Origin: Myxococcota bacterium
GTDB lineage: Bacteria > Myxococcota_A > Polyangia > HGW-17
DNA: 36,197 nt
Direction: 5' to 3'
Assembly (NCBI GenBank): GCA_018821745.1
Contig: JAHJLU010000009.1
Coordinates: forward strand, 1 to 36,197
This document shows positions 6,184 to 26,741 of the stretch, one piece after another. The notes below the pieces were generated by a model. That model worked only from the letters and a program-made list of their open reading frames with translations, was not told the origin of the DNA and made no database searches. The position numbers and the translations under genes are program-made. Each line of letters opens with the position of its first letter. Position 1 is the first letter of the stretch.

Positions 6184-6256
6184 CCACCCCCCCCTTCTCG
6201 CAGCGTCCATTCCACTCGCTGTTGAATTATTTACCAAAATAGTAAATTCAATGATT

Positions 6257-6272
6257 GGGCACTGAACTTGCG
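6257..6272 (+). promoter_or_regulatory. Sigma-54 (-24/-12) promoter candidate for the CoADR-rhodanese / NifX-like operon
   Basis: gGGCAC-tgaac-TTGCg matches TGGCAC-N5-TTGC with correct GG-to-GC spacing (G6259 to G6270 is 11 nt). It sits about 37 nt upstream of the ATG at 6309, and a sigma-54 activator gene is adjacent. Confidence 0.55.
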
Positions 6273-6308
6273 GCACTAAGGCCCGTCGGGGGGCGCGAAA
6301 GGACACAA

Positions 6309-8006
6309 ATGGCACAAAAACGCATCGTTATTATTGGCGGCAGCGCCGCTGGACCCAAAACCGCCGCCCGCGCCAGGCGACTGGACCAGAGAGCCCTCAT
6401 CACCCTGATTGAACGGGGGCCCGACCTCTCCATGGCTTCCTGCGGATACCCCTATTACGTTGGTGGTGTCTTCGACTCACGAAACTGCCTCATCGAGACC
6501 CCCACGGGGGTCCCCAGAAACCCGGGCTTCTTCCTCAACGCGAAGAATATCATCGCCAGAGTCAACTGCGAAGTAACAACCATTGATCGCGCTCAGCGCA
6601 CCGTCACATGCCGGAACACCCTCACGGGCGAGGTCGATGTGGTCCCCTATGACAAGCTCATGATCGCCACGGGTTCATCCCCGAGACTTCCCCCCCTGGA
6701 GGGGATCGACCTTGAGGGCGTCACCACCCTCCAGTCCATGAAGGATGCCGACTACCTGCGTGCCATCCGGGATGAAAGGCGTGTAAAAAAGGCCATCATC
6801 ATCGGCGGGGGTCTCATCGGTATCGAGACCGCTGAAGCGCTCCAGCTCGCGGGCATCGAGATCACCATAGTGGAGCTCATGGACCAGCTCCTCCCCTTTT
6901 TGGACTGGCAGTTGGCCAAACTGGTGGAGAACCACCTCAAGTCCAAGGGCGTCAATGTCCTCCTGGGGAACGGTGTGGCCGCATTCACGGGAGAGGCTGG
7001 CACGCTCACGGGCGTCAAACTCGCCAGCGGCACAGAGCTTCCCTGTGAGCTGGCGGTTGTAGCCGTTGGCGTAAAGCCCAGCTCCCAACTGGCAAAGGCA
7101 GCGGGGCTGGAGATCGGTGTCACCGGCGGGATCAAGGTCAACCATTTCATGGGGACCACGGACCCCGATATTTACGCCGCGGGGGACTGTGTGGAGATCT
7201 GCAACTGCATCACCGGTGCCCAAACCTACGCCCCCATGGGTGATCTGGCCAACCTCCAGGGTCGGGTCGCTGCGGACAACATCATCCTCGGCGACAGCGT
7301 CCAGTTCTCGGGGACCATCAACACCGGGATTTGCAAAATATTCGACTTCGCCGCGGGGGCCACCGGACTCACGGAGGCTGCAGCCTTGAAAGCAGGCTAT
7401 GACGTGGAGACCGTGGTCAACGCGAGCCCTGACAAGCCGGGGTTTATGGGCGCAAAGTTGCTGGTCTCCAAAATGGTGGTGGACAGAAAAACAGGAAAGC
7501 TTCTGGGATATCAATGCACCGGTCCCGGTGACGTGTCCAAGCAGGTCGCCCAGGGGGCCATGGCCATCCGAGGCCAACTGACCGTCGCACAGATGATGGA
7601 TCTTGATCTGCCCTATGCGCCCCCCTTCTCTCTGGCAATTGACCACTTCATTGCCTCGGCTCACATAATGGACAACAAGCTCAAGGGCCGCATGAGCGGT
7701 ATCTCCACCCGACAGGTCCGGGAGATGCAGTGCAGGGGCGAGAAGGGAACCTTCTTCCTGGATGCCCGCGGTCCCGACGAGTTCGAGGCCATGCGCCTGG
7801 GAATCGGGGAGGTCCTCATCCCCCTGGGCGCCCTGAGGAAAAGACTGGGTGATCTGCCACCTGACAAAAATCACCCCATTGTCTGTTACTGCAAGATCTC
7901 CCTTCGGGGATATGAAGCCGCGCTCATTCTCATGGACGCAGGCTATACCAATGTTCGCGTCATGGAAGGCGGCATCATGGCCTGGCCCTTCCCACGGGAA
8001 AAATAG
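6309..8006 (+). CDS. FAD-dependent CoA-disulfide reductase/NADH oxidase family enzyme fused to a C-terminal rhodanese domain (persulfide/polysulfide reductase-like)
   Basis: ATG at 6309 follows AAAGGA. Motifs present: FAD fold IVIIGGSAAGPKTAARA, redox Cys in SMASCGYPYY, second dinucleotide fold AIIIGGGLIGIETAE, and rhodanese active-site loop CYCKISLRG near the C-terminus. Confidence 0.92.
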   Translation: MAQKRIVIIGGSAAGPKTAARARRLDQRALITLIERGPDLSMASCGYPYYVGGVFDSRNCLIETPTGVPRNPGFFLNAKNIIARVNCEVTTIDRAQRTVTCRNTLTGEVDVVPYDKLMIATGSSPRLPPLEGIDLEGVTTLQSMKDADYLRAIRDERRVKKAIIIGGGLIGIETAEALQLAGIEITIVELMDQLLPFLDWQLAKLVENHLKSKGVNVLLGNGVAAFTGEAGTLTGVKLASGTELPCELAVVAVGVKPSSQLAKAAGLEIGVTGGIKVNHFMGTTDPDIYAAGDCVEICNCITGAQTYAPMGDLANLQGRVAADNIILGDSVQFSGTINTGICKIFDFAAGATGLTEAAALKAGYDVETVVNASPDKPGFMGAKLLVSKMVVDRKTGKLLGYQCTGPGDVSKQVAQGAMAIRGQLTVAQMMDLDLPYAPPFSLAIDHFIASAHIMDNKLKGRMSGISTRQVREMQCRGEKGTFFLDARGPDEFEAMRLGIGEVLIPLGALRKRLGDLPPDKNHPIVCYCKISLRGYEAALILMDAGYTNVRVMEGGIMAWPFPREK

Positions 8007-8016
8007 GAGAATTTAT

Positions 8017-8385
8017 ATGAAAATTGCTGTACCTGTAGAAAACGGAGTCCTCTCAGCCCACTTTGGTCACTGTGAGCACTTTGCCCTCATCACCGTAAAT
8101 GAAGCGGGAGTCATCACAGAAGAGGAGTCTGTGGACGCCCCCCAGCACCAGCCCGGTCTCTTTCCACGCTGGCTCTCCAGCCTGGGAGCCGACGTGATAA
8201 TCGCCGGCGGCATGGGACAGATGGCCCGCCAGCTCTTTGAGCAGAACAACATCGAGGTGGTGGCAGGCGCTCCCACCCAGGCGCCGAAAACGCTGGTGGA
8301 ATCCTTTATCAAAGGCACCATGGGAACCAATGACGCCCCCTGTGAAGGTGGCCACGGCCACGGAGGGGATTGCGGCGGCCACTGA
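8017..8385 (+). CDS. NifB/NifX-family (dinitrogenase FeMo-cofactor-binding-like) small protein with Cys/His-rich tail
   Basis: ATG at 8017 is 6 nt after AGGAGA and 11 nt after the upstream stop. The sequence MKIAVPVENGVLSAHFGHCEHFALI...DVIIAGGMGQMARQLF is typical of the NifX/NifB C-terminal-like family. The tail reads CEGGHGHGGDCGGH. Confidence 0.85.
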   Translation: MKIAVPVENGVLSAHFGHCEHFALITVNEAGVITEEESVDAPQHQPGLFPRWLSSLGADVIIAGGMGQMARQLFEQNNIEVVAGAPTQAPKTLVESFIKGTMGTNDAPCEGGHGHGGDCGGH

Positions 8386-8422: not shown

Positions 8423-9031
8423 TTACCAGGCAGCAGAAGGGACCCCTATTCCTGCCCTCCTCCGGATCGTTTCCATATGAAGTTTTTTCAGAAATCTGGG
8501 GAGATTTCTCCAGATTCGGTGATACCCGTAGCCACCCTTCTTCATCTCCCGGATAGCCTCTTTTTTCGACCACCCCTGCACGGCAACCCGGTACACGGCC
8601 ACCATGACCCCGGTCCTGTCCGCACCATGTTGACAATGGACCAGCACCGGGGTTTTGGAAGGGTCGTTGACAATTTTCAGGAACCGCACCACGTCCTCCA
8701 CCTCGGGGTGCCACGCCTTCACCTGGATGTGCTCATGGAACAGTCCCGTCCCGGTGAGTTTGTCCGTGTCCGAGTGGAGCGCTCGAAGATTCACAACGGT
8801 CTTGATGCCCATGCGTTTCGCCTCACGCATCCCTTCGGCGGTGGGCTGGGCACTCCGGTACAACACGGGAGATACCCGATGCAGATTGGGAAGCCCCGGC
8901 CGGTTCAGTTCCCGAGCCCAGCTGCCGGGTCTGTCAGAAGAGCCTCTGCGGGAACTCTCATCTGAAGAAGAGGAGACCGGGGAACAGTTGAAAAACAAAA
9001 CAATACTGAGGAGAGAAAAATATTTGGTCAT
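8423..9031 (-). CDS. Secreted dual-specificity/tyrosine phosphatase-like protein (HCX5R)
   Basis: The N-terminus is a signal peptide (MTKYFSLLSIVLFFNCSPVSS). The P-loop VLVHCQHGADRTGV matches the HCX5R(S/T) signature. GGGAG lies 5 nt upstream of the ATG. The start is 16 nt downstream of the giant ORF stop on the same strand. Confidence 0.85.
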   Translation of the reverse strand: MTKYFSLLSIVLFFNCSPVSSSSDESSRRGSSDRPGSWARELNRPGLPNLHRVSPVLYRSAQPTAEGMREAKRMGIKTVVNLRALHSDTDKLTGTGLFHEHIQVKAWHPEVEDVVRFLKIVNDPSKTPVLVHCQHGADRTGVMVAVYRVAVQGWSKKEAIREMKKGGYGYHRIWRNLPRFLKKLHMETIRRRAGIGVPSAAW

Positions 9032-9047
9032 GGGTACTCCCGATGTT

Positions 9048-12000
9048 TTACCGTTTGCTGCTCAAATCCTGCAGAAGGGGCTTCACAACATAGGCAGGGG
9101 AGGGAACCGCCTCCACAAACCCCATTCTCACCAACTGGAGAATCGGTTCAGTGAGCTCGGGAACCTGAAAAATAGCCCCCGTTTTTATGGATATTAACAG
9201 ACTAAGGGCCGCCTCACCACCTACCATCGGGGCAAGGGCCATGTGGAGTTCCATCACCTGATCCTCCGCCTTTTGCCCCTTGAGCGAGGCAATCCTCTTT
9301 ATGGTCTCGGTGGGCACTTCAATTCCCAGGGCTCTTGCCTCCTCATAGATTGCCGCGAGGGTCGCCATATCATTTCGCAGCCGATCATGCTCCATCTCCA
9401 CAAATGAGTCGAACTGATCCGCGTCCTTCTGACGATCGGGGATATTGTACACATGCTGTTTGCTCCAGACTCCCCCGGGCCGTGGAATGGGCGGTCTGAG
9501 CGGGAGCGGGGGAGCGTGATCCATTTCGCTTTGCACCGAAGCTACAGAACTCATGGCCCCCATGGAACCCGTCGACCCCTCAATGGGCAGTGGGAAAAAG
9601 CCCGTGGCGGTGGGAATGATGGCCAGAGCGAAAAAATGGTCGGGATAGTCTATCATCCCCTTTTGTGCCAGCCACCCCGTGGCCGCCACAGAAGGTATGC
9701 CCAGGTGACGCAACAGCTCAATAGCCATGGAGTTCAACTCGTAGCAAACACCACGGCCCAGATGATGTCTGCTTTTTCCCGCGTGGAGGATGGCCAGGTG
9801 GTGATTTCCCTTTCCCTTCTTGAGGTTTGACATGACCCGTATCACCTTCTCGTTGCGTTTGAACTGGAGATCATAGATATAGCGAGACTGGACAAACTCC
9901 TGCACTGCCATGGCCTTCTCCCACAGAGAGCGACCCGATTTTTCCATGCGGGCCAGCCATGCCTGTACCTCAATGGGAAGCTTCATCCTCTTGAGTGCAG
10001 GCCTCGTGAGGTCTGAAAAGGCGGAAGGCGCGGTTGTCTCTTCCCCCATGGAGGGCACCTGATACAGCTCCACCTCGTACTGGATGGTCACACTCCCGTG
10101 TGAAGGCACATCCATGGTGATGATGTTCCCTTCCTGCTTCACCCCTATGGCCACCTGTTCTCCCCCGATCACCTCGGGAAAGGCTGCGAGTTTCGAGAAG
10201 AGAGGAACGGGCAGAACACTCCTCCCGGGCATTACCCGACCCTCGAAGAGGACCCTTGCCCCGGTAGTGTGCAGCGTGATTCCTCCCTGGAGGTCTCGGG
10301 GCACATTGGCGGAGGTCCAGACCTGACTGCCCCGATGAAAAGCACCCGCGGCAACATGGATCATGTAACAGTAGGGCGACGGGAGGGCCGCAGGGGAGTA
10401 TGCCAGCCGCACAGCGGGAGGTTGTCGGGAAATGGCTCCAACCGTGTCATGGTTTGCCCAGAGTTGGGAGGGAATATTCTCCCGGGGGGCGAGACAGTTG
10501 GCCCCTTTTCTTGCCCATGCGGGTAGGTCTTCATAAACCACAATATTTTGTTTTTCCTTATCTTTTCCAGATATCCAGCCGAAGAGATTCCATCCTCTCC
10601 CGGAAGGTTCTTCATGGACTTGAGGGGAGACCATCACATCATCGGGGCCCGTGGACACGTTCGTGGAGTGATCCCACGAAGGGTCATCGGGCATTGGTTC
10701 AACTCCCCGGCGTTGCTGGTGCTCCTCACGGCGGGTGAGACCATCCCCGGTGACCCGGTGGCCAAACTTCTGCCCAAAGGTGTGCATCAGATCTGCCAGG
10801 TCCTCCCTCTCTTTGTCGGTCATGACGAGGGACGGCCGATCATCATGGGGTGCGGACACAGACATGGACGGCAGGGGTGCCAGCTCATGAAGGGAGGGGG
10901 CCAGATGCCCGAAAACCTCCGGGGGGATGTCGTTGAGAGTGGGAGCTGTCAGCACGGCGGTCATGGCCTCCACGAGGCTCTCTCCCGGGGAGAGCACTCC
11001 CGCCGCTTCCAGCAGAACCAGCGCGACCGTAGCCATTGCTGCGTCGCCATCATGCTCTGCCTGCTTTGTGATCCGGGACAGCAGCCCGGCCTCTCTCCAG
11101 GGAGTGAAATCTGCTCCCCGCAGCTCGGGATACCCCTCCCTGAGACGCTGGTGAATACCATAATCCAGAACGTCACGAATTCGCCCCTTGAGTGGATGAT
11201 CCTCACCAGAACCCGCACTGATGGCCTGGGGAAAATGTCGCAAGTCCATATAGGCGGACATCCGTTCCCGGGTTCTGTGGGGAAGCACCAGCTCGATGAT
11301 ATCCACCAGCATCTCCTCGGATCGCCCCGTGTACAATGCTGGAATGAGCCCCTGTGCGAGCCCGCTGGAATGGTTTTGGGGTTCTGCCAGCACCTTTTCA
11401 TCCACCAGAAGTACTTTTTGCTTCCGATCATAGATGGCGTCCACGGACTGGGTAACGGAGCCAACACCGGAGAGAACATACTGGACCTTGAGATCCGAAT
11501 AGACTTCGACCGCCCGGTGGTCCAGCACCTCCCTGATCCGATGATAGGCCCACCCTTTTTCATCAAGATCATCACGCTTTCTTTCAATTCGGGGCATACA
11601 ATACCAGAGCGCGTCCAACTGACTCACCAGGGAACTGATGTGGCCCGCCCATTTTTCCGTGACACAGACCTGATCAGCGTTATGCTCAATGGTGTATGCC
11701 TCTCGGAGTCGCCGAATCTTCATCAACTGGTAGAATCGGCTGATATGTTTCTGGTCCTCGGGAGGACCATCCATGGTCAGGAACAGCTCGCCGGTGTCAC
11801 GAAACAGCGCCTCCAGCGTTGGCGTGTCGCTCACGAGGAGCCGCGGGTTGTCACTTGAGACAAGAACGTGGGCACCCTGAGGGTCTGCGATGGCGCGGGC
11901 CAAAATACATGGGGTGTTCTGTGGTCCTCCCTCTTCCCGTGCTCCCAGCCAGGCATAGCAGGAGAGCAGCATGCGGGAGAGGGCGTGATCACCCGAGAGC

Positions 12001-14687
12001 ACGCCGGAAGACCCGCTCTCTGTCACCCCGTCACCAATCTCCCTGAGAAAGTCCCTGACTCTCTGGGGGGTCAGAGTGGCCGCGATGCCAAACTGCCGCG
12101 CAAGAACCGGACAGGACGCTAATCCCCGCTCCCAGTACCCCCATCGGTTGCCGAAAAGCTGCAGTGCCCTGACTCCCACTACCCTCTTGTGGTTGTAAAA
12201 TTCACCATCATCGGAGCAGATCCAGGTCGCACCCTCCATGATTGACGCAAGCTCTCCTCCATTTATCCACCCCTCCTTGAGACCCAGATCTATCCACTGG
12301 TAGACTCTCAGCGGAAGAATTTTATGATCTCTGGAGCTATACTCAATGTACCGAACAACCTCCATAAGACTAATATCCTTGTCGGTTTTTAAATTAAGCG
12401 CTCCAAATACCCGCTCCCCCAGGAGCTCTTTCATCCGTGGATCAGGGAAGAGATCAGGAGAATCACCGATGAGCACTTCCACCTCCAGGGACCGCCTGTA
12501 GAGTTCACCGGGTCGCTTGATCACTGTGCTGCCACTTAAGAGCCAACGAGAAGCCTCCAGGGAGAGCTCCAGCGCTTTTTCATTCAATTCTCCCAACAGG
12601 GCGGCCAGGGAGAGCGCCCATTGTGTGTTTCCAGGGCCATTGATCAACTGATCCTCGAAGAGGGAGAGCGCCGGCAATTGCGGCAGATCAAGCTCTCTGA
12701 GAGCCATTTTAATGTCCTGGGGGTAACGCTCAACACTCACCATGTGGAGATCTTCTTTAAACACCGTGGTCAGATGGGGACACAGGTTTTCCGGGGGGAC
12801 GCAACAGCTGCCCAGCGGTGCAAACGAACCATCGGAGCATTCAAGAAGAATCCCCGGCTCACGGAAAACCTTTTTGTGATGCTCCCTGGGAAGATTTCTC
12901 AGCGCCCAGGTGAGAAGCATGGCCGCTTCTTGCGGGGAATTTGCTGAACAGACCGCTCTGTATTTGGGTAAAAAGTGTTCCTGGACCAGGGTGAGGGGGT
13001 CAGGCCGCCCGATCCCCAGATGGCGCTCCAGCAGGGAAATGCACTGGGAAGGAATCCGCGGGTGGGGGATCCAGTCCATTCCCAGATCCGGCAGCTCTTT
13101 ATGGGTTACCAGCGCCGTGGGCACCTTGAAGGTCCCCAGGGTTGTGGGAAAAAGGGGAAGCTGCAGGAGAACGGCACAGTTTTCTTCAATGGAGAAAAGC
13201 TCCCGCTCGCTGGCAATGATCCACTGGAAAAATCTGTCCGGGGTGTCTCCCTCCCGAAACCGGACCAGGGTTTGGGGCCGGGCTATGAACGCTAAAACCT
13301 CGGTCATGGAGAGGTCGGGCAGTTTTTCTCTGACGGCAGGGTCGAGCAGAGAGAAAAAGCCGTCATGGGCCAGGCGGGAAGCCAGCGTGGTCTCCCCGAG
13401 AAGGGAGAGAGTCGCGACAGAGCACTTGCTGAGCCCGTGAGTAACCAACCGGGAGGCTCCATTGACAGCCAGCGGGAGAGAATCAAGGGGAGTTTTTCTT
13501 TCAAGACCCATCAGGAGATTCACAAAACCGGCACACTTCTCCACGCTGTTCAAAAAGGAGCGCTGATTCACAAGGCTCTCATCGTTCTCGACAAAGCGAC
13601 CAAGGAGTTCCTGTGTGCAGGGGATCATCCCGCTGAAGGTAAAAAGCGACCCAAATTCATTTGCGAATTGTTCTGCCGCCGGGGTCAGAGTGAGGCGGGC
13701 CACCAATTCCCATTCGGGGGACCCTTCCTCCATCAACGCAAGCAGCTCTCGACCCACAATTCCCTCACTGGCGGAGACCGTGACATTTCCCAGAGTGGGA
13801 AACAGCGGCAGGAGGTCAAGATTAAGCAGCTCTCCCTCCTTTACTGCAGTGACAAGTTCCGCGCGCCTCTCGACCAGAACTCCCAGAATCCCTGGATAGC
13901 AATCCAGGGGCAGGGGAGAACCATGGGCCACTTCATTGTGCAATAAAAATTGCTGGAGAAGCTTCACACATTTTACTACGGTAAAGGGGGCCACTGAGAG
14001 GGCCTTGAAATAGGCTCCCACGGACTCTTGATTACCCCCTCCATAGATGGGGACCAGTGGCTGGACGATGAAACGAAGGGGCTCCTCAACCAGATAGGTG
14101 CGCCCCGAATCAAAGGGAAGTGCAGGATCTCCGGGCGGTCGCAAGTTTCCCCTCGTGTCGGGGATGAGGGGTAATCGGAGGCACTGGTTCACATCTGTAC
14201 CGCTGAGGGTTGGGACTGATCCGGAAAGAAAATCCAGGATTTTCCAAAGATTGTTCACAACTTTGGGTAAAAATGGGTGGTCTTCTCCATTGGGCTTATT
14301 GCATGCCTCCTCCAGATGGGCGATGAAGGTCGCCGCAGTGAGCATAAGACACTGATCCGTAAGGTGCAGCTCTCGAACCAATCCGCCAGAGACCGATTCG
14401 GGATCAAGAAAATGGGTGGAAAAAAGCTCCCCATAAAGGGACTTCAGTTGATCTGAATCGCACGCGGCAAGAGTCGAGAGCGTATGAAGATCCCCCTTCT
14501 CACACAAAAAGGCCTCTGCCCCCGCAAGAATCTGGGCACTCTTTCCGTGGATCAGTGCTCTCTTCTCGTACAGAAACTGTATGACCGCATGGATATTCTC
14601 CGGTGTTGGGACAATAAGCAATTCAGCGGAACCGACCCTGGCCAGAGCACCGATGATGGCCGCAACCCCGACGCTCTCGACCCCCAT
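9048..14687 (-). CDS. Giant (1,879 aa) cytoplasmic repeat protein with C-terminal transglutaminase-like cysteine protease/transglutaminase core
   Basis: The frame is uninterrupted with coding-like G/C third positions. About 8 repeats of ~105 aa fill aa 170-950. The transglutaminase-core signature is GRGVCYELNSMAIELLRHLGIPSVAATGW...DHFFALAI (Cys1648 codon 9746..9744, His1684 codon 9638..9636). No signal peptide or TM segment is present. The ATG directly abuts the stop of the upstream GHKL ORF. Confidence 0.85.
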   Translation of the reverse strand: MGVESVGVAAIIGALARVGSAELLIVPTPENIHAVIQFLYEKRALIHGKSAQILAGAEAFLCEKGDLHTLSTLAACDSDQLKSLYGELFSTHFLDPESVSGGLVRELHLTDQCLMLTAATFIAHLEEACNKPNGEDHPFLPKVVNNLWKILDFLSGSVPTLSGTDVNQCLRLPLIPDTRGNLRPPGDPALPFDSGRTYLVEEPLRFIVQPLVPIYGGGNQESVGAYFKALSVAPFTVVKCVKLLQQFLLHNEVAHGSPLPLDCYPGILGVLVERRAELVTAVKEGELLNLDLLPLFPTLGNVTVSASEGIVGRELLALMEEGSPEWELVARLTLTPAAEQFANEFGSLFTFSGMIPCTQELLGRFVENDESLVNQRSFLNSVEKCAGFVNLLMGLERKTPLDSLPLAVNGASRLVTHGLSKCSVATLSLLGETTLASRLAHDGFFSLLDPAVREKLPDLSMTEVLAFIARPQTLVRFREGDTPDRFFQWIIASERELFSIEENCAVLLQLPLFPTTLGTFKVPTALVTHKELPDLGMDWIPHPRIPSQCISLLERHLGIGRPDPLTLVQEHFLPKYRAVCSANSPQEAAMLLTWALRNLPREHHKKVFREPGILLECSDGSFAPLGSCCVPPENLCPHLTTVFKEDLHMVSVERYPQDIKMALRELDLPQLPALSLFEDQLINGPGNTQWALSLAALLGELNEKALELSLEASRWLLSGSTVIKRPGELYRRSLEVEVLIGDSPDLFPDPRMKELLGERVFGALNLKTDKDISLMEVVRYIEYSSRDHKILPLRVYQWIDLGLKEGWINGGELASIMEGATWICSDDGEFYNHKRVVGVRALQLFGNRWGYWERGLASCPVLARQFGIAATLTPQRVRDFLREIGDGVTESGSSGVLSGDHALSRMLLSCYAWLGAREEGGPQNTPCILARAIADPQGAHVLVSSDNPRLLVSDTPTLEALFRDTGELFLTMDGPPEDQKHISRFYQLMKIRRLREAYTIEHNADQVCVTEKWAGHISSLVSQLDALWYCMPRIERKRDDLDEKGWAYHRIREVLDHRAVEVYSDLKVQYVLSGVGSVTQSVDAIYDRKQKVLLVDEKVLAEPQNHSSGLAQGLIPALYTGRSEEMLVDIIELVLPHRTRERMSAYMDLRHFPQAISAGSGEDHPLKGRIRDVLDYGIHQRLREGYPELRGADFTPWREAGLLSRITKQAEHDGDAAMATVALVLLEAAGVLSPGESLVEAMTAVLTAPTLNDIPPEVFGHLAPSLHELAPLPSMSVSAPHDDRPSLVMTDKEREDLADLMHTFGQKFGHRVTGDGLTRREEHQQRRGVEPMPDDPSWDHSTNVSTGPDDVMVSPQVHEEPSGRGWNLFGWISGKDKEKQNIVVYEDLPAWARKGANCLAPRENIPSQLWANHDTVGAISRQPPAVRLAYSPAALPSPYCYMIHVAAGAFHRGSQVWTSANVPRDLQGGITLHTTGARVLFEGRVMPGRSVLPVPLFSKLAAFPEVIGGEQVAIGVKQEGNIITMDVPSHGSVTIQYEVELYQVPSMGEETTAPSAFSDLTRPALKRMKLPIEVQAWLARMEKSGRSLWEKAMAVQEFVQSRYIYDLQFKRNEKVIRVMSNLKKGKGNHHLAILHAGKSRHHLGRGVCYELNSMAIELLRHLGIPSVAATGWLAQKGMIDYPDHFFALAIIPTATGFFPLPIEGSTGSMGAMSSVASVQSEMDHAPPLPLRPPIPRPGGVWSKQHVYNIPDRQKDADQFDSFVEMEHDRLRNDMATLAAIYEEARALGIEVPTETIKRIASLKGQKAEDQVMELHMALAPMVGGEAALSLLISIKTGAIFQVPELTEPILQLVRMGFVEAVPSPAYVVKPLLQDLSSKR

Positions 14688-17612
14688 CTACTTCACGTGT
14701 GATCGTGAAGCCACCTCGGCGTGGAGAAACACTCCCCCTCGAGGGCCCGGGGCAAAAAAGGCCCGCACCCCTTCCTCCATGGGAATAAACACCGCCTCCT
14801 TACCCGCGAGGGGTCGCCCTGCTGCATGCTCATCAGGCCAGATCGGCAGTTTGACCAGCTCCTTTCGCTCCGTGGATGAGAGCTCATCCCTCCCCTCCTC
14901 CAGCAGGCCATGGAGACGAAGCAGAACATCGGGCGTGAGCCGGGGACCGAATCCTTCCTGCATATCCCGCACGAAGGTAGTGAGCGACAGGGCATGAATA
15001 TTGAGCTGCCTCATGATGATTCCCGTGGGGGAATCTTCAGAAACCTGGGGACAAATGACGGGTCGAACTCCCTGGTAGAGTTGGGCCAGACCCCTGGAAA
15101 GGTCAGAGTCACCCGTCCTCAGGGCACCTTTCCGATCCGTAATGTTCCTTGCCAGCGGATAATAGAGACCGTCCATGGCCAAGAACACGGGCAAAGCCGC
15201 CAGACGTATCAGTAAATCACGGTTTTCTTCACAGGCGATGGTGAGGACCAGATCGAGCCGCTCTCTGGTCTGTATCAACTCGACCTCCTCGAGTGAACGA
15301 AGGGGCGGTTTTATCTCCCTGAGTTGTCCCGAAAGATCCTGGATCAGCCGGGCCGTCGTCAGGACATTAACCCCAAGTAAATCAATCAGGTGAGCGCCCT
15401 GGGGTAAATAAGCAGAGTCACCGCGGGCCTCCGGGTCAAATCGTGGATGGACAAAGGAACAAAACCCCTCATACAGTTGGCGCAACGGAGCACTTCCCCT
15501 GAACACACCGGAGTCCCCGATGCTCACCAGCCCACCGCCGGAATCCAGCACCAGGGGCAGTTTTTTCAACTCCTCCAGGATACTAGATCGCTGGGCTTTG
15601 TTGGAGGCCAGCTCATGGAGAAACAGGGTGTAGACAGCGTCCATGGTCTCCCATGATGGATTGTGGAGGAAATGTTCCCGGGGAATACCCGCGGTCCCAC
15701 CGGCCAGCAGCACCTTGAGGTGATCAAGGAGATCACGGACACCAAAGCTTTTTACGCCAAGGAATTTACCCACCTCCATCTGACGCTCGGACAGACGGGG
15801 ATCGGCAAAATAGATTGCAGTCCCCTCCTGCCAGAGGAGATCTCCCACCAGACGGGAAATTTCAGGGGTGGTCACTCTGAGCTCCCCAGGGCACCTCAGG
15901 ATACCCCGCTGGTCGGGAATGAGGGCACGGTCAGCCAGCTCCCGGTGGAGCGTCACCGGGATGGTTTTAAATACAGGGGCATTGAGCTCGTGGGGCAAGG
16001 GAAGAATATCCAGAAAGCCCAGCGCCCTCTCCAGAATTTCCGATTCTTCCCCACCCAGAGAGAGCAGAGTCTCCCGAGCCTTCAGCAGGAGCTCAGGGAC
16101 CTTGGAATTAATCCATCGATTCCAGGCGGAGTCGGAGTCTATGCGCTCCCTGTCAACGGGCACATCAAAGTGTCCCTGTAAAAAGAACCTCAGCCCGGAG
16201 TGCTCCCCCGTGGGGAGATAACTGTAGACGGTGGAATCCAAGGGTTCCAGCGGACAGGGCACTCCGGTATCGCTGCACCGAATACCAATCATAACGCCTG
16301 TTGAATCGGGTTTTCCTGCCTGTCTCTGGAGGCCGCTGCACGAATAGTCATTATCGCACACCAGATAATGGGAGACGGCTCCCGATGGCTCCTGCACAAT
16401 GGAAGATATCGCCCGCTCGCCACGATTAATTTCGTGAATCGCATGGGTCCCGGGTCCCCCCGCATCCTGATTAAGCTCCAGCTCGATATGATCAATACTC
16501 TTGAGGGTAAAGAGCACCACGGGATCAAGCGCACATGCTTTCTCGAAGAGAGCAGACGCGCTCCGGAACTGATCGTCCGGGTTTTTCAGGGGCAATAGCA
16601 GGAGTGTCCCATCCGGAGGATACCCCTCAGGCCTCATTGCGAGGGTTTTTGGAATAGAAACATCCACAATTTCAAATTGATAAGCTCCTGAATACAGTTG
16701 AGGCCGCTCTGTGACCTCGTAAATGGATTTGAACCCCACGCCGAAAAAGCCAATCTGGGATTTGCTTTTGGTGGTCTGCCCTATGGAGGTGATTCCCACC
16801 ACATCCTTGGTGTCAAAGGGAGTCCCGTTGTGCCACACCGCTATCTGATCACGGGCGAAGTAGAGCCTCCACACCGTAGCACCCGAGTCTTCTGCATTTT
16901 GCAAAAGCTCAATGAGAAAGTGACCGGGATCCGTGTACACCTTCTTCGCCAACAGCTCCTCGGCATTGGACTGGGAGACCGCCTTGGGAAAATTGGAGAT
17001 TACCTGCACCGCACCAAGAGCGAGCTCCCTGTGGCGTTCCCGGAACGCCTGGACCACCTGTTGTCCCACCTGCTGCGAGAACTGCTCCAGCTGCATGATG
17101 GCCTCGGCTGAGAGCTGGGCGAGATGGTCAACGGTCAGGGATTCCAGACTCCCGGACTCAAGCCGGGACCGACAGGTCAAGAGGAGCTTCGAGAGATATT
17201 CGTCCCGCTCCCCGGGAAAATTGTGCTTCAGTGCCCTGTCTATCAGACACATGGAGGAGAGCTGCCGCAATGGCATAACCCCCATGGCTGCCGTTAAAAT
17301 TTCACAGAGCGCTCCACGATGCTCACGGTGCTCATCCACCACCTCCAGCATGGTTCTGGTAATTTTATTGACCGCTGTCTCGGAGCGCTCCACCAGAAAT
17401 CTGGCAAAATTCTGCCGGTTCTCCTCGGTACCGAAGTATCCCATGGTAAGCAGATGCCCAGCCAGCCACGAGAGGGGAGAGCTGTCTCGCACCGTAGCGG
17501 CAAGCTCCAGAAGGTGTTCGGGAGACTCCCGGGTGAGTTGATCTGTGAGCCAGTTGATCTGCCCCTTGAGAGGGAGGGATGAAAAAACCTGGTCCGGTTG
17601 CGCTTGGGTCAT
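14688..17612 (-). CDS. Sacsin/NO-VEIN-type GHKL (Hsp90-like, HATPase_c_3-like) ATPase with C-terminal repeat modules
   Basis: Bergerat-fold motifs are present: ELLQNAEDS (16910..16884), VWHNGTPFDTKDVVGITSIGQTTK, IGFFGVGFKSIYEVTERPQLYSG, and the sacsin-type YSYLPTGEHSGLRFFLQGHFDVPVDRERI. I prefer the ATG at 17612 (GAAGGGA upstream). The track start at 17663 would add 17 aa and has no RBS. Confidence 0.88.
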   Translation of the reverse strand: MTQAQPDQVFSSLPLKGQINWLTDQLTRESPEHLLELAATVRDSSPLSWLAGHLLTMGYFGTEENRQNFARFLVERSETAVNKITRTMLEVVDEHREHRGALCEILTAAMGVMPLRQLSSMCLIDRALKHNFPGERDEYLSKLLLTCRSRLESGSLESLTVDHLAQLSAEAIMQLEQFSQQVGQQVVQAFRERHRELALGAVQVISNFPKAVSQSNAEELLAKKVYTDPGHFLIELLQNAEDSGATVWRLYFARDQIAVWHNGTPFDTKDVVGITSIGQTTKSKSQIGFFGVGFKSIYEVTERPQLYSGAYQFEIVDVSIPKTLAMRPEGYPPDGTLLLLPLKNPDDQFRSASALFEKACALDPVVLFTLKSIDHIELELNQDAGGPGTHAIHEINRGERAISSIVQEPSGAVSHYLVCDNDYSCSGLQRQAGKPDSTGVMIGIRCSDTGVPCPLEPLDSTVYSYLPTGEHSGLRFFLQGHFDVPVDRERIDSDSAWNRWINSKVPELLLKARETLLSLGGEESEILERALGFLDILPLPHELNAPVFKTIPVTLHRELADRALIPDQRGILRCPGELRVTTPEISRLVGDLLWQEGTAIYFADPRLSERQMEVGKFLGVKSFGVRDLLDHLKVLLAGGTAGIPREHFLHNPSWETMDAVYTLFLHELASNKAQRSSILEELKKLPLVLDSGGGLVSIGDSGVFRGSAPLRQLYEGFCSFVHPRFDPEARGDSAYLPQGAHLIDLLGVNVLTTARLIQDLSGQLREIKPPLRSLEEVELIQTRERLDLVLTIACEENRDLLIRLAALPVFLAMDGLYYPLARNITDRKGALRTGDSDLSRGLAQLYQGVRPVICPQVSEDSPTGIIMRQLNIHALSLTTFVRDMQEGFGPRLTPDVLLRLHGLLEEGRDELSSTERKELVKLPIWPDEHAAGRPLAGKEAVFIPMEEGVRAFFAPGPRGGVFLHAEVASRSHVK

Positions 17613-17806
17613 GGCATGTTTCCCTTCGTTGGAATATTTTCCCTCCGACAGTGACACAATCATTGTAAATTTTCAATGCTCCGCCCCCCGCGATCTCTTT
17701 TCGAAACCCCGCTGTTTGGCAAAACGCCCCCACGGTGCAGAGAGAAACCCGTTTTTTCCTTTTTATTTATTTGTTGTCAGCGATTTGTGACTTCTGAGGA
17801 GGCGGA

Positions 17807-17835
17807 ATTATAAATATTTTTTACATAACTATCAA
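17807..17835 (-). promoter_or_regulatory. Sigma-70-like promoter candidate for the GHKL/giant-ORF operon
   Basis: The minus strand reads TTGATA (complement of 17830..17835), a 17-nt spacer, then TATAAT (complement of 17807..17812). The spacer region is AT-rich, so a chance match is possible. Confidence 0.35.
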
Positions 17836-18022
17836 TTTTGGATAACTGCGGGGTTCCATCCCCCCGAAGGGTTTGAACCGAAAAGAAATTACAATGTATT
17901 ATTAAATATTTATCACATCGAATGTCCCTACGGTGATAGTGAACCCTTTCCGTGGCTATTGTGGGTGAGATGTGCCATACAAAACCCAGACAAGTCTATA
18001 CTTAAACGAAGGAAGGTCCGAC

Positions 18023-18370
18023 ATGTCGCATTTTCGATGCTCCAAGTGTGATAATCTGCTCATTGAAGGGGAAAAAACCTGCTGGAATTGTGCCCAGAAG
18101 GTAACTTCCACCAATGTCGTCGACCGTAAAAAACTTGGTGACAGCGAGTTTGACTTTGACAGCGGCCAATTCGGCGACAGACAACCTGCAAGACCTGCTC
18201 CCGAGAGCGTCGAGCAGCGTTATTCCAAGCCCCTCGGCTATACCGATGACAGCAATTCCCAGGTGAGTCTTGCCCGGGAAGAGGAAGCCAAAAGGCGCAT
18301 GGGGGTCATCCGCTTTGTGGTGATCCTCTCGGTCATCATAGCTGCCGCTACCGTATTTATTTTGAATTAA
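18023..18370 (+). CDS. Zinc-ribbon protein with C-terminal transmembrane anchor
   Basis: ATG at 18023 follows GAAGGAAGG. The N-terminus MSHFRCSKCDNLLIEGEKTCWNCAQK has CxxC-N12-CxxC. The C-terminal helix is IRFVVILSVIIAAATVFIL. It is divergent from the GHKL operon. Confidence 0.65.
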   Translation: MSHFRCSKCDNLLIEGEKTCWNCAQKVTSTNVVDRKKLGDSEFDFDSGQFGDRQPARPAPESVEQRYSKPLGYTDDSNSQVSLAREEEAKRRMGVIRFVVILSVIIAAATVFILN

Positions 18371-18539
18371 GTCGAATTCCCGGGAGATGAGGAACAGCCC
18401 GCCGCCAGCACCAGGCAGAATAAGTAAACTCCCCTGTCGGGACAGGAGCAACTACGGGAGTTGACACTTTTTGGAAAAAACCTGCGGGTCAGGAATGTGG
18501 GCACGGGGACCCCGGGGGCCGTCGCTTACCCATACGTGG

Positions 18540-19139
18540 TCATAAATCGAGATCATCTTTACTCATATCCCAGTTCATTATTCGGGGCATGATCGGTTTC
18601 CCCGCCGTCCGGATTCTGGGGGGTCTCCGTATGCTACCCTTTCTTTGGGGCGGACAGCCATCCAGGGATCGAATGCCCTTTACCTTTGGGCATTTATCCA
18701 GAGAATCGGGGATCCCATCCTTGTCGGCATCTGCGGAAGACGCATTCATGGAATCCGCTGCAGGGGCCATGGTCACGGGGGGCTGTCCGACACTCTTATC
18801 GGGGGCCATTTCCACGATTACAGGGGGAGTTGCGGGAACTGTATCCTTTTGTTTCGGCCAGGAGACCACTCCCTTTTTGCGTATGATTTTGGGTTGAGGG
18901 CACCCATCGACCGTCATGGGAGCGTACTTCTCCGGGCAGCTATCTTTAATATCAGGGATACCATCTCCGTCCCTGTCCCGTTTCTGGGGAGGAGTCGCCT
19001 TCCCTTCCTGGGGGCCGGGATCACTGCATCCCCCCAGACAGAACCCTGCAAGGAGGGTCCCGCCCATGAAGAGATTCCGTGCGAGGGTGAGGGAGGGATA
19101 GGAAGGAGAGTATCGGTGATTGCTGCGCCTGAGTTTCAT
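18540..19139 (-). CDS. Lipoprotein with thrombospondin type-3-like Ca-binding repeats
   Basis: The lipobox is GFCLGGC. Two DxDxDGxxDxxDxCP repeats are present (DRDGDGIPDIKDSCP, DADKDGIPDSLDKCP). The start is uncertain (19175 TTG, 19139 ATG or 19067 ATG). Confidence 0.7.
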   Translation of the reverse strand: MKLRRSNHRYSPSYPSLTLARNLFMGGTLLAGFCLGGCSDPGPQEGKATPPQKRDRDGDGIPDIKDSCPEKYAPMTVDGCPQPKIIRKKGVVSWPKQKDTVPATPPVIVEMAPDKSVGQPPVTMAPAADSMNASSADADKDGIPDSLDKCPKVKGIRSLDGCPPQRKGSIRRPPRIRTAGKPIMPRIMNWDMSKDDLDL

Positions 19140-19369
19140 GATGGAACCTGTGATTTTCCGTTGAGCCAGTATCAATGGTTCACACTACCCAAATTCACCA
19201 GCGGCGTCAATTATACTGCCGCGAATCAGCGCACGTTTCGTTGACTTACGGATAGCTTCAACTATAAAGGTGATTGCTCTACAAGCGGATAGTCGCTCAT
19301 GGGCAAAAACCAATTATATAATTTATTTTATTAGCTTTTTTCAAAATAACCCGTGAGCTTTGGTTCTGC

Positions 19370-20221
19370 ATGTTCAATCGATTTGATGTTTTTCTGAGAA
19401 AACTGTCACCGCTCATGGTTACCCTCATCTCCATTTTCATGGTGGTGATTCTGGCCCTGGTGGATCATCTCACGGGCTATGAAGTCTCATTCTCCGTGTT
19501 TTACCTGGTCCCCATCACCCTGGCCACCTGGTACGGAGGATTTTTTCATGGTACTCTCATCAGTTTTCTCAGCGCCATGGCATGGATCCTTGTGGACTGG
19601 TCAGCGGGACGACATTACAGTCACAGCCTGATTCCGGTCTGGAACGGGGGAGTGCGCTTCGGGTTTTTCCTGATCACCGCCGCATTGTTATCCCGCCTTA
19701 CTGCCCAACTGGAGAGGGAACGCAACACGGCAAGGCTCGACGGTCTCACGGGAATCATGAACAGCCGGGGGTTCCGGGAGGCCGCCGCCTCTGTGTTTTC
19801 CGTTGCAAGAAGATACAACCGACCGCTCTGCATCGGATACATCGATCTGGACAATTTCAAATCCGTGAATGACTCTCTGGGTCACTCCGAAGGCGACCGG
19901 GTACTCAGAACCGTGGCCACAACCCTCAGAAATTCATTGCGAAACGCTGACTTAACAGGACGCCTCGGGGGTGACGAGTTCATTGTTCTGTTGCCCGAAA
20001 CAAATCAGGAAGGCGCCAGCACGGTTTTTTCCAATCTTCGAACCAACCTCCTCGCCCAGGTGGAATCGAGCAAATGGCCCATTGGCTTCAGTGTGGGAGT
20101 TGCCGTCTTCACGCAGGTTCCGCAAAACATCGATGAGGCTGTCCGGTATGCCGACGGGCTCATGTATCGGGTGAAAAACGGCGGAAAAAACAATATCCTC
20201 TTCGAAGTTATCACTCCGTAA
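19370..20221 (+). CDS. Membrane-bound diguanylate cyclase (GGDEF) with intact I-site
   Basis: Roughly four N-terminal hydrophobic helices precede a GGDEF domain (DGLTGIMNSRGF, RLGGDEFIVLLPE). An RxxD I-site (RNAD) lies 5 residues upstream of GGDEF. Confidence 0.92.
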   Translation: MFNRFDVFLRKLSPLMVTLISIFMVVILALVDHLTGYEVSFSVFYLVPITLATWYGGFFHGTLISFLSAMAWILVDWSAGRHYSHSLIPVWNGGVRFGFFLITAALLSRLTAQLERERNTARLDGLTGIMNSRGFREAAASVFSVARRYNRPLCIGYIDLDNFKSVNDSLGHSEGDRVLRTVATTLRNSLRNADLTGRLGGDEFIVLLPETNQEGASTVFSNLRTNLLAQVESSKWPIGFSVGVAVFTQVPQNIDEAVRYADGLMYRVKNGGKNNILFEVITP

Positions 20222-20370
20222 AAATCTTTTGCTGCTCCTCGCCTCCAATACGCGCACTCTCGTGCTTTCCTTTGAGGGCAAATTCTGATACAAGTGCCCC
20301 GCACCCCGGGTCCTCATGAAACGGGACCCTTGGTGCCCCTCACCTCTTGTAACGAGAGGATCCATATACA

Positions 20371-20406
20371 GGGCCCGGGTCCCAAGGGACCCGGGCCCCC
20401 TTTTTT
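20371..20406 (+). terminator. Rho-independent terminator
   Basis: A perfect 12-bp GC-rich stem pairs GGGCCCGGGTCC (20371..20382) with GGACCCGGGCCC (20387..20398) around the loop CAAG. It is followed by CC and TTTTTT (20401..20406). It lies 150 nt downstream of the diguanylate cyclase stop. Confidence 0.7.
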
Positions 20407-20506
20407 CCTTGTTCAGTTTTTCTCACCGCATGCATTGTATAAAGAATCCTAGACCACATGCCACACACGTGGCCTTCAAGCGGATATAACAACACACGCT
20501 TGATGA

Positions 20507-22114
20507 CTATGACTGGGGGACCCCACCCGCTCCTGACCCCTGCAGGAGGAGGCTGCCGGAGCGGATATCCCGGTATTCACCGTCCGCAACCTTCATGGCA
20601 CCTCCCACAAAGAGAAACCTGAGTCCCGTATGTTCTGACTCACTTCGGGGCAGGTGGAAATCGGGGCCGAACAGTGCGAGATCTGCGATGGCACCCTCCC
20701 GGATCACCCCTCTGTCGGTGAGTCCCAACCTTCGGGCGGGAACCGAGGTCATCTTGGCCACGGCACTTTCCAGGGAAATGAGTTTTCTTTTAAAGACAAA
20801 ATCATTAATAATTTTGGGAAAACTACCATAATTGCGAGGGTGTGGAATACCGCCGGGGAGGCTGTCCGTGCCCACCATGGAACCATCGTGGAGAAATATG
20901 GCCTCCACCAACTGCTCTTCCATGTATCTGTCGGTCATGCGTACATTCCCCCCCTCACGCTGCAGAAGCCCAAGAAGAAAGCGCACGGGAGAGATGCCTC
21001 GGTCAGCAGAGGCCTTCGCCATACTGAGACCGATGAGCGAAGTTTCGTGTTGCAAATCGGTTATAACAATATTCTCCCACCCCACAAGCGCAGGCAGGTT
21101 GTCCCAAGGTGTGCCAGGCGGCAAAGACCGGGCTTCCGAAAGAATCAATTCAACTTCTTGAATTACGGACTCCTCAGACAATGTCAGCAACACCTCGGGA
21201 AGTGATTTGTGTGCAAAAATATGCGGTGGAATAAGAGAGAGGAGGGTTGTGCTGCCGAAGTTAAAGGGATACTGATCAAAGGAGAGCCCGTGGTGGTCGA
21301 TTCTGGTGAAGAGTTCTTTCAGTTTTGCGCTGTTTCGTTCGCCAATCACTTTCAGGTGGGAAACATGAAGGACCTCCGGATGTTTACCAGCAAGCCGGAT
21401 CAGTTCATCCATGGCCTCCACAATCTCGTCGCTCTCGCTTCTCATGTGAACCGCTACCATTCGGCCATGGGCTGCTGCCACATCAAAAACCCTCTGGAGT
21501 TCGTCTTGATCCGCAAAGAGAGCCGGCAAATAAATACGTCCCATGCTGACACCCACCGCTCCTGCGGCAAAACATTCTTCAAGAGCCTGTGTCAGGGCAT
21601 CTCGCTCATTCGTGGTGAGTGGGCCCGTGCTCAATGGAGCCACGAACTGGCGCAGAACTCCGTGGGGGGCGAAGGGGATGAGGTTGTGTTCCAGCCGTCT
21701 CGTCCGCAGGGCGCTCAGATACTCATCGAAGCGCTCCCAGTTCCACGGTGCACCAGGATCACCGAAAATAAGTCTCCTGCGAAACCCGGGGCGCTCCAAA
21801 GCGGTAACAGGTGCCACTCCGAGCCCACACACGCCAGTCACCTCGGAGGTGATCCCCTGCATAATTTTTTGGCGCATTCCCTCCTCAAGAAAAGGAGCCA
21901 GGTCCGTGTGAGAGTGGGTATCAATAAAACCGGGTGTGAGAAAACCCCCGCCTCCGTCAATCGTTACTCCCTCATCACTGCAAATGCCACCGCGCCGGAC
22001 ACGAGCGATACGATTGCCTGTAACAAGCACCTCCCCTAAGTAGGGCGGGGCTCCGGTTCCATCCACGATCACAATATTTGATATTCGCACCATGGGGTTT
22101 TCAAATGGATACAA
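20507..22114 (-). CDS. N-acyl-D-amino-acid deacylase (D-aminoacylase) family amidohydrolase
   Basis: The N-terminus reads IVIVDGTGAPPY...GNRIARV...IDGGGGFLTPGFIDTHSHTDL (HxH metal site). Length and architecture are typical of the family. The start is ambiguous (TTG 22114 or ATG 22093). Confidence 0.88.
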   Translation of the reverse strand: MYPFENPMVRISNIVIVDGTGAPPYLGEVLVTGNRIARVRRGGICSDEGVTIDGGGGFLTPGFIDTHSHTDLAPFLEEGMRQKIMQGITSEVTGVCGLGVAPVTALERPGFRRRLIFGDPGAPWNWERFDEYLSALRTRRLEHNLIPFAPHGVLRQFVAPLSTGPLTTNERDALTQALEECFAAGAVGVSMGRIYLPALFADQDELQRVFDVAAAHGRMVAVHMRSESDEIVEAMDELIRLAGKHPEVLHVSHLKVIGERNSAKLKELFTRIDHHGLSFDQYPFNFGSTTLLSLIPPHIFAHKSLPEVLLTLSEESVIQEVELILSEARSLPPGTPWDNLPALVGWENIVITDLQHETSLIGLSMAKASADRGISPVRFLLGLLQREGGNVRMTDRYMEEQLVEAIFLHDGSMVGTDSLPGGIPHPRNYGSFPKIINDFVFKRKLISLESAVAKMTSVPARRLGLTDRGVIREGAIADLALFGPDFHLPRSESEHTGLRFLFVGGAMKVADGEYRDIRSGSLLLQGSGAGGVPQS

Positions 22115-22132
22115 GAGGATCTGTTCTTTTTT

Positions 22133-22936
22133 CTAACTGTATAGCTTCGTTGTTTTATTGTAGGAGGCGAGGATCCCCTGGATCATGGCGCTTGAGAACC
22201 CCTGGTGCTCCATGGTGTTGAGCCCCGTGATGGTGCTCCCCTTGGGAGTGGTGACCTTATCGATCTCCGTCTCGGGGTGGTTCTCCATCTCATCGAGCAG
22301 CGCCGCCGCGCCTTTGGCTACCTGGGCTGCCAGAGGAATTGCCTGGTCGGGATGGAATCCGATCTCAATCCCGCCCTGGGAAGCGGCACGTATCGCCCTC
22401 AGGAAGAAGGCGGTCCCGCAGGCACACAGCACCGTGGCAGGCACCATCATCTCTTCAGTGAGCACCATACATTTGCCCACGTAGCCGAAGAGCTCCATGG
22501 CCAGTGCCAGCGCCTCGGGAAGCTCCCGGTCATAGGCGACACAGGTCATGGACTCTCCGATAGCCGCGGCGGTGTTGGGCATGATCCGGATAACCGGATT
22601 TTCCTTGCCGGTGAGCTTCCTTACGGTGGCACAGGAGACTCCGGAGACCACGGAAAGGATAATGTGATGGGGTGCAAGATGGGGGGCCAGCGACGCAAAC
22701 AGGCTGTCGACCTGCTGGGGCGTGACCGCCACGATCAGCACCAGGGCGTGGTCGAGAGCCTGAGCATTGTCCGTTGTGGCCGTAAATCCCATGGCCTCAA
22801 GCTTCTTGCGAGAGTGGTCGCTCCTGGTGGTAACCATGAGGTTCTCATTGGAAAAATCCTTGGCGCGGCTGAGCCCTTTGGCGATGGCAAGGCCGATATT
22901 TCCACATCCTATGATGGCGGTTTTTTTATTGAACAT
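22133..22936 (-). CDS. proC: Pyrroline-5-carboxylate reductase
   Basis: AGGAGG lies upstream of the ATG at 22936. The NADP fold is KTAIIGCGNIGLAIAKGL, and the C-terminal motif TTPKGSTITGLNTMEHQGFSSAMIQGI is present. Confidence 0.92.
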   Translation of the reverse strand: MFNKKTAIIGCGNIGLAIAKGLSRAKDFSNENLMVTTRSDHSRKKLEAMGFTATTDNAQALDHALVLIVAVTPQQVDSLFASLAPHLAPHHIILSVVSGVSCATVRKLTGKENPVIRIMPNTAAAIGESMTCVAYDRELPEALALAMELFGYVGKCMVLTEEMMVPATVLCACGTAFFLRAIRAASQGGIEIGFHPDQAIPLAAQVAKGAAALLDEMENHPETEIDKVTTPKGSTITGLNTMEHQGFSSAMIQGILASYNKTTKLYS

Positions 22937-22966
22937 TCGGCCTCCTATGGGGCTGAAAAGGGGAGA

Positions 22967-25015: not shown

Positions 25016-25161
25016 ATTGCCTCCTCACCCTCACGGGGCGCTATGGGAAAAAACAGGGCGCTGGGGGTTACTCCCCGGCAGGTCACCCAGTCATAATCAT
25101 TAATCCCCAAAGGCGCAACACTCTTCTTTGGCCCGCCCCACAAGGAATCGGCCCGAAACTG

Positions 25162-25189
25162 TTGACAAAGGTGCCACTGCCGGTATACC
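25162..25189 (+). promoter_or_regulatory. Sigma-70-like promoter candidate for ahcY
   Basis: TTGACA (25162..25167), a 16-nt spacer, then TATACC (25184..25189). This would give a leader of about 125 nt before the ATG at 25320. Confidence 0.4.
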
Positions 25190-25295
25190 CCTTCATCATG
25201 CTCCCGGCAGCCCCTGGTTGAGGCTCCGGTAAAAACTGCCCACGCTCATCACTGTGTGGCCTGAAACCGGGAGTTTCGATACACGATTATTATGA

Positions 25296-26741
<1,446 letters not shown>

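Follow-up and report, generated by a model that had tools for sequence, protein, structure and literature searches.

The minus strand of the stretch of DNA examined here (36,197 nucleotides, positions 1 to 36,197 of contig JAHJLU010000009.1 from the Myxococcota bacterium assembly GCA_018821745.1; hereafter the window) contains two adjacent long open reading frames (ORFs), ORF1 at 14688..17663, with 991 amino acids (aa), and ORF2 at 9048..14687, with 1,879 aa. An earlier reading made from the letters alone (the sequence-only reading) had located both exactly, and proposed that they encode a coupled pair of proteins, namely a sacsin-type GHKL ATPase and a repeat protein with a transglutaminase-like core. 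Our analysis indicates instead that these parts are the two ends of one polypeptide, as the two ORFs share one frame and a sister contig reads through the stop between them. The explanation that best accounts for the whole, and that we hold with moderate confidence, is a giant single protein, predicted to be cytoplasmic, which belongs to a conserved family and in which an ATP-driven switch would act on a thiol enzyme. We consider the identity and architecture of this protein very likely to be correct; the mechanism proposed for it is a tentative suggestion that may well need revision.

A single gene with one in-frame TAG

When the minus strand is translated from 17663 to 9048, it contains one stop, a TAG at 14688-14690 that is directly followed by an ATG, and ORF1 and ORF2 are in the same frame on either side of it. 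The gene comprises 2,871 codons from the first ATG, or about 2,854 from its probable start at 17612. The deposited gene calls that start at Met18 are a 974-aa product and MBU1239653.1. Domain residues of the giant protein (aa 1-2417, E252 and so on) are counted below from the first ATG. The features that define the gene are as follows.

9048..17663, minus strand: giant gene with one in-frame TAG (same frame, single-ORF homologues, read-through in the sister contig)
17610..17612, minus strand: probable true start, Met18, with a Shine-Dalgarno-like sequence (GAAGGGA) ahead of it, where the deposited gene calls start
14688..14690, minus strand: in-frame TAG, codon 992, which is GAG (Glu) in the sister contig, with a conserved Met codon next

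The sister contig JAHJPZ010000386.1 (L034, assembly GCA_018819465.1) is syntenic with window positions 13720-25581, with three mismatches in 11,862 bases. Given only three differences over 11.9 kb, the two metagenome-assembled genomes (MAGs) sample one population. At position 14690 the sister contig has G where the window has T, which gives GAG (Glu) rather than TAG, and the frame reads through. The remaining two differences (22678 and 23723) are an L87F substitution in the P5C reductase (P5CR) gene and a synonymous change at Thr431 of a 682-aa ORF, respectively. Consistently, MBU1239653.1, a partial protein of 1,298 aa from this contig (Myxococcota; in the 90% cluster of the window's ORF1), is identical to the read-through translation at 1297 of 1298 positions, with Glu at the stop.

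Homologues in other genomes were located by a pattern scan with the C-terminal alignment, covering one genome per species, which returned 29 loci. Tracing ORFs from stop to stop, together with tblastn using the concatenated protein as the query, showed a single uninterrupted ORF of 2,344-3,005 aa in 17 species-representative genomes, and in three of the loci (L007-L009) one tblastn alignment covers residues 27-2862. The homologues of ORF1 designated P0002, P0003, and P0004 likewise extend beyond residue 991, and from the conserved Met onward they align with the start of ORF2. In an alignment of 35 proteins, the position of the TAG is occupied by Asp or Glu in most of the 34 homologues; it falls at or near a repeat-unit boundary, just ahead of a Met that is conserved in intact homologues. 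Where homologues are interrupted, the interruptions are frameshifts at varied sites, and none is split at the position of the window's TAG. The frameshifted copies come from three long-read genome assemblies (L022, L023/L003, and L031), and also include L001 and the Logan-assembled L004. These interruptions look like errors; the L001 copy is frameshifted, yet its 100%-identical counterpart L014 is intact.

Recoding of TAG as a sense codon was considered and rejected, as TAG terminates SecA, AdoHcyase, P5CR, and other genes of the window. The shared frame, the uninterrupted homologues, and the GAG of the sister contig together show that the presumed pair is one gene, and that its split is a strain-level nonsense single-nucleotide polymorphism (SNP) or a consensus error, not the boundary between two evolved genes.

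Domain architecture of the giant protein

The architecture of the family is fixed, and consists of a leader, a GHKL domain, about twelve repeats, a middle domain, a linker, a beta-sandwich joined to a Cys-His-Asp/Glu enzyme, and a helical tail. In the window these parts, with the catalytic residues numbered by ORF2, lie at the positions listed below.

16989..17663, minus strand: N-terminal leader (aa 1-225), present in 78 of the 80 long representatives of the family; no Pfam match; helical according to the sequence-only reading
16044..16988, minus strand: sacsin-type GHKL (Bergerat) ATPase-like domain (aa 226-540), by Pfam SACS, NCBIfam P_loop_sacsin, and PDB sacsin
12114..16043, minus strand: about twelve divergent repeats of ~110 aa (aa 541-1850), by hhalign of family-alignment slices
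10914..12113, minus strand: conserved middle region (aa 1851-2250), at 29-39% identity wherever a listed relative covers it; no match in Pfam
10413..10913, minus strand: variable linker of low complexity (aa 2251-2417), acidic with many Pro and Ser residues, which tethers the C-terminal enzyme module
10062..10412, minus strand: beta-sandwich domain before the core (strands at 22-138 of the AlphaFold2 model, pLDDT mostly 80-95), which aligns together with the core to 6g49 and 3isr
9576..10025, minus strand: transglutaminase-like thiol-enzyme core, by Pfam Transglut_core and by AlphaFold2 and Foldseek
9744-9746, minus strand: Cys1648, invariant
9636-9638, minus strand: His1684, invariant
9579-9581, minus strand: acidic third residue Glu1703, assigned from spacing
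9123..9428, minus strand: C-terminal helical tail, modelled confidently with the core; its length differs between clades

The sequence motifs quoted in the sequence-only reading are all present (ELLQNAEDS, HNGTPFD, IGFFGVGFKS, GRGVCYELNS, and LLRHLGIPS..GW..DHFFA), and both folds that it named were recovered by profile or structure searches. For the GHKL fold, ORF1 scores 54.6 bits against Pfam SACS PF25794 (cut-off 32.8) and 76.7 bits against NCBIfam P_loop_sacsin NF047352 (cut-off 50), and it matches the Hsp90-like domain of sacsin in the PDB (5v44/5v47) by sequence with an E-value of 1.3e-6. The N-box ELLQNAED and the G2-box GFFGVGFK are invariant in 35 homologues, and the residues invariant across the 35 sequences are E252, N256, D259, H278, G280, D287, G305, G308, G310, and K312. 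The GHKL stretch is ~75% identical among these 35 homologues, whose overall identity is ~30%.

The GHKL domain is followed by the repeat array, in which each unit opens on LGV..V....L and closes on LP(L/I)(F/I)P..G, the latter motif being a putative hairpin. A repeat search with profiles built inside the one protein recovered its own seeds only, and profile-profile comparison of slices of the family alignment was used instead. In this comparison units 2-7 and unit 9 reach hhalign probabilities of 90-97.6%, and units 8 and 10-12 are weaker; the repeat architecture does carry on over the ORF boundary, as had been claimed. Searches of seven sub-segments against Pfam at E <= 1 found no further domains. 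In most of the listed relatives the match to the query breaks in two around the linker region, and this variable linker separates an N-terminal apparatus of ~2,250 residues from the thiol-enzyme module.

The C-terminal module is recognised by Pfam Transglut_core (PF01841, cut-off 23) with 23.5 bits for the whole of ORF2 and 28 bits for the sub-sequence alone, and the same model matches 24 of 25 family members, with a best E-value of 1.3e-12. AlphaFold2 run on the single sequence of this region gave an unusable model (pLDDT, the per-residue confidence score, 33), and an alignment of 28 rows was used instead, with which the last 475 residues were modelled at a pLDDT of 85.3 and a pTM of 0.75. 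The top Foldseek match of this model is the periplasmic domain of Pseudomonas aeruginosa TgpA (6g49; E 1.2e-7, probability 1.0), and it also matches a putative cysteine protease of Cytophaga hutchinsonii (3isr; E 4.5e-5, probability 1.0). Searches of PDB sequence profiles with the C-terminal alignment returned chance matches only, and the relation to TgpA is visible at the fold level only. Like these two proteins, the giant protein has a beta-sandwich followed by a transglutaminase-like core. It shares 10-14% sequence identity with them, and has in LGRGVCYELN an invariant motif of its own family. Further, the TgpA domain is periplasmic and sits on a membrane protein, whereas that of the giant protein is predicted to be cytoplasmic and is fused to an N-terminal apparatus of ~2,400 residues.

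All of 25 sequences compared have LGRGVCYELN, GW, and DH unchanged. An acidic residue lies ~20 positions past the His, and is Asp in 22 of the 25 and Glu in the window, L005, and L009; its assignment as the third member of the triad follows from its spacing. The ATPase site and the thiol active site rank with the best conserved parts of the family, and the invariant GHKL and Cys-His motifs show strong purifying selection on both catalytic centres. A hydropathy scan of the giant protein detected no transmembrane-like segment and no signal-like N-terminus, in agreement with the sequence-only reading, and on this basis the protein is predicted to be cytoplasmic.

Distribution of the family and genomic context

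When ORF2 residues 680-1879 were searched exhaustively with HMMER against the representatives of 50%-identity clusters, 207 cluster representatives were retrieved at E <= 1e-3, with 155 at E <= 1e-30. The family comprises proteins of 2,300-3,100 residues in at least 150 clusters at 50% identity, and about two-thirds of each protein is without domain annotation. Eighty representatives are at least 2,200 aa long (median 2,518), and since 77 of these contain both the GHKL head and the transglutaminase-like module, the fusion is obligate. Together with the single ORFs in the 17 genomes described above, these representatives confirm that the two parts are always linked in other genomes. Carriers are found among Myxococcota (Haliangium, Kofleriaceae, Polyangiaceae, Nannocystaceae, and unclassified MAGs), Candidatus Obscuribacterales, and Planctomycetota. 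Two members have a name given by their source, in both cases "hypothetical protein". Word-indexed protein searches with ORF2 or with its C-terminal 500 aa returned nothing; these are false negatives, as ORF2 (P0177) and its relatives are in that collection, and negatives of such searches are unreliable for this giant sacsin-transglutaminase family.

The N-terminal part of the protein also occurs with other C-termini. P0002, encoded on an ENA contig of 6,874 bp, is 43% identical over 98% of ORF1, and its leader, GHKL domain, and first six repeats are homologous to about residue 1,166; everything after repeat 6 is replaced by HisKA, HATPase_c, and receiver domains, i.e., a hybrid histidine kinase. 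Sacsin-type heads of more distant proteins are fused to NOV_C in the Tiamat-like P0021, and to AlbA_2 and caspase domains in P0025. Besides these fusions, a relative of 1,304 aa at L002 (10001-15895) ends after repeat 7, and a gene encoding a Peptidase_M14-like protein of 634 aa follows 76 bases on; this pair may represent an in-trans peptidase variant of the same logic.

In the window the giant gene is accompanied by genes encoding SecA, a sigma-54 activator, a CoA-disulfide-reductase-like enzyme, P5C reductase, AdoHcy hydrolase, ribosomal protein S1, and RsmG, and, as the sequence-only reading had stated, no mobile or defence genes are present beside it. Two features adjoin the gene.

17807..17835, minus strand: sigma-70-like promoter candidate upstream of the giant gene, TTGATA-17-TATAAT, proposed from its 11 of 12 consensus matches only
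8423..9031, minus strand: dual-specificity/tyrosine phosphatase-like gene, by Pfam PTP-NADK, DSPc, and related models

The phosphatase-like gene starts 16 bases past the stop of the giant gene on the same strand, behind a ribosome-binding-like site (GGGAG), and is probably co-transcribed with it. The closest relative of the window's gene (L005) has a 68%-identical copy of the phosphatase 2.4 kb downstream, and a weak relative lies near L003/L023. The phosphatase is absent from the other loci and was rejected as a general partner; given this lineage-specific association, it is doubtful whether it belongs to the unit.

The 194 neighbouring ORFs of 21 non-redundant loci were clustered all against all, which revealed no family common beyond close relatives, and a conserved operon partner was rejected accordingly. 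A census of 114 neighbours with Pfam and PADLOC returned housekeeping genes and no defence enrichment, the only recurrent item and the only PADLOC matches being generic Ser/Thr kinases at four loci. Ser/Thr kinases are common in Myxococcota, so their presence beside 4 of the 21 loci may well be chance. Synteny is kept within clades. Among L007-L009 the giant proteins are 63-68% identical, which lies between the values for their two upstream neighbour genes (81-83% for the adjacent one and 49-59% for the other). None of 72,556 plasmids has a match to the transglutaminase module, and the matches of the N-terminal query in them are limited to distant (<30% identical) DUF3883-type relatives of the GHKL head; plasmid carriage was rejected. 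The family is conserved, chromosomal, and largely vertically inherited.

A mobile or conflict-like context occurs at one locus only, L003 (Kofleriaceae; same contig as L023), where the homologue is located amid genes for an IS66 transposase, an MqsA-like antitoxin, an HNH protein, and ADP-ribosylglycohydrolase, Macro, and NUDIX proteins; the name of this contig carries "2x", and the homologue is frameshifted.

Three other loci of the window were recorded. The 682-aa ORF mentioned above (22967-25015, minus strand) has a sub-threshold match to DUF7897 and no significant Pfam match, and is conserved in the sister contig. On the plus strand, 6255-8385 encodes a pyridine-nucleotide disulfide oxidoreductase that has a rhodanese domain at its C-terminus; the end of this gene overlaps with the listed start of a small ORF, whose product has a dinitrogenase FeMo-cofactor-binding-like domain. 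The third locus, 18540-19175 on the minus strand, lies between the giant gene and a GGDEF gene and encodes a small protein in which thrombospondin type 3 and Excalibur-like calcium-binding motifs are present.

Proposed mechanism and alternative explanations

We propose that the leader, GHKL domain, and repeats constitute a portable cytoplasmic input module, a view suggested by P0002, in which the same N-terminal module ends in a hybrid histidine kinase. By analogy with other GHKL clamps, ATP binding and hydrolysis by the GHKL head would switch the conformation or oligomeric state of the protein, as in a dimerisation clamp, and the repeat array would hold a protein partner or substrate. The input module would then gate the tethered thiol enzyme, which may cleave, deamidate, or cross-link a cytoplasmic protein target.

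Several observations weigh against this proposal. ATP clamps are established for the GHKL proteins Hsp90, MutL, and MORC and not for sacsin-type domains, for which ATP binding is itself debated. The window copy has Asn in place of the Asp of the G1-box, as do 4 of the other 34 homologues, and the third catalytic residue of the window copy is Glu, not Asp. No domain is recognisable in the middle ~2,000 residues, which makes substrate binding by the repeats a guess. Lastly, the head resembles that of an anti-phage protein, which leads to the first alternative.

According to this alternative, the giant protein would be a single-protein anti-phage or conflict system similar to Tiamat, with a transglutaminase-like peptidase in place of DUF3883/NOV_C, in which infection is sensed and the enzyme is unleashed on host or phage proteins. 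The sequence-only reading had recognised no named bacterial system here. This stands for the architecture as a whole, as we found no description in the literature of a bacterial sacsin plus transglutaminase architecture; it does not stand for the N-terminal part, as aa 227-721 of ORF1 match nine PADLOC profiles of the Tiamat protein TmtA (PDLC03964-03972), with a best E-value of 6.5e-45. Like the giant protein, TmtA is one large polypeptide of the cytoplasm that has a sacsin-type GHKL domain in its N-terminal part, and ~500 residues of the two can be aligned. The joining of the head to NOV_C in P0021 and to AlbA_2 and caspase in P0025 resembles the effector swapping typical of conflict systems, and transglutaminase-like peptidases have been named among the swappable effectors of such systems (PMC8195603). 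The mobile surroundings of L003 and the patchy distribution over three phyla point in the same direction.

However, the best TmtA match spans profile positions 22-517 of 1,302, i.e., 38% of the profile, and ORF2 has no match in PADLOC. The C-terminal NOV_C/DUF3883 (PF13020) nuclease of TmtA, of the PD-(D/E)XK type, was detected in neither ORF1 nor ORF2, although it was found in P0021 as a control. The giant protein is roughly twice as long as TmtA, and has in addition a long repeat array, whose profiles barely detect Tiamat-like proteins, and a transglutaminase-like C-terminus. Moreover, its gene has housekeeping neighbours in the 21 loci rather than those of a defence island, its synteny holds within clades, its divergence is intermediate between those of its two upstream neighbours, and its transglutaminase module is absent from plasmids. 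The defence role that the sequence-only reading had offered thus lacks contextual support, and we regard a Tiamat-like function as unlikely.

A second alternative is a proteostasis or cytoskeleton machine similar to eukaryotic sacsin (SACS; PDB 5v44-5v47), in which large assemblies are chaperoned by the GHKL domain and repeats, and are trimmed or cross-linked by the transglutaminase-like domain. The sequence homology to the Hsp90-like domain of sacsin, the giant size with a repeat scaffold, and the stable, housekeeping-like inheritance are in line with it, and both proteins are giant and cytoplasmic with a Bergerat domain of Pfam PF25794 that contains an N-box and GxxGxG. In sacsin such a region occurs three times, alongside UBL, DnaJ, and HEPN domains (PMC3710099). 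The giant protein, in contrast, has a single SACS domain, lacks UBL, DnaJ, and HEPN domains by Pfam, and ends in a thiol enzyme; the likeness rests on one domain, and no chaperone or cytoskeletal genes recur in the neighbour census. We regard this alternative as very unlikely.

Finally, a genuinely split two-polypeptide module, or the production of ORF2 by termination-reinitiation at the TAG-ATG, is conceivable, as the stop lies near a repeat boundary with the ATG immediately after it, ORF2 is open over 1,879 codons, and Met makes up about 2% of codons, so that a random nonsense mutation would seldom fall right before one; but nothing requires it, and it is highly improbable given that this Met is ancestral and conserved in intact homologues, that essentially the same strain (L034) has Glu at the stop, that no homologue is split at the same point and the other interruptions are frameshifts elsewhere, and that no clear ribosome-binding site precedes the ATG.

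The giant protein of the window, with its proposed ATP switch and thiol enzyme, is hence best described as an uncharacterised, widespread architecture built from known kinds of domains, and not as a two-gene system. For annotation, this means one gene with a nonsense SNP or a consensus error in place of a two-protein system. In a bolder and quite unlikely form of the proposal, the protein would be a bacterial counterpart of sacsin-class machines, in which one polypeptide, by means of an ATP-driven GHKL switch and a repeat scaffold of ~1,300 residues, captures a specific cytoplasmic protein assembly that the tethered enzyme proteolyses or cross-links. If true, bacteria with complex cell biology would have a class of cytoplasmic sensor-effector that had gone unrecognised. 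One input module appears with a transglutaminase-like enzyme or a histidine kinase as its output, and distant relatives that share the head only end in a nuclease or caspase. With such bacterial fusions, the role of sacsin-type GHKL domains could be probed experimentally.

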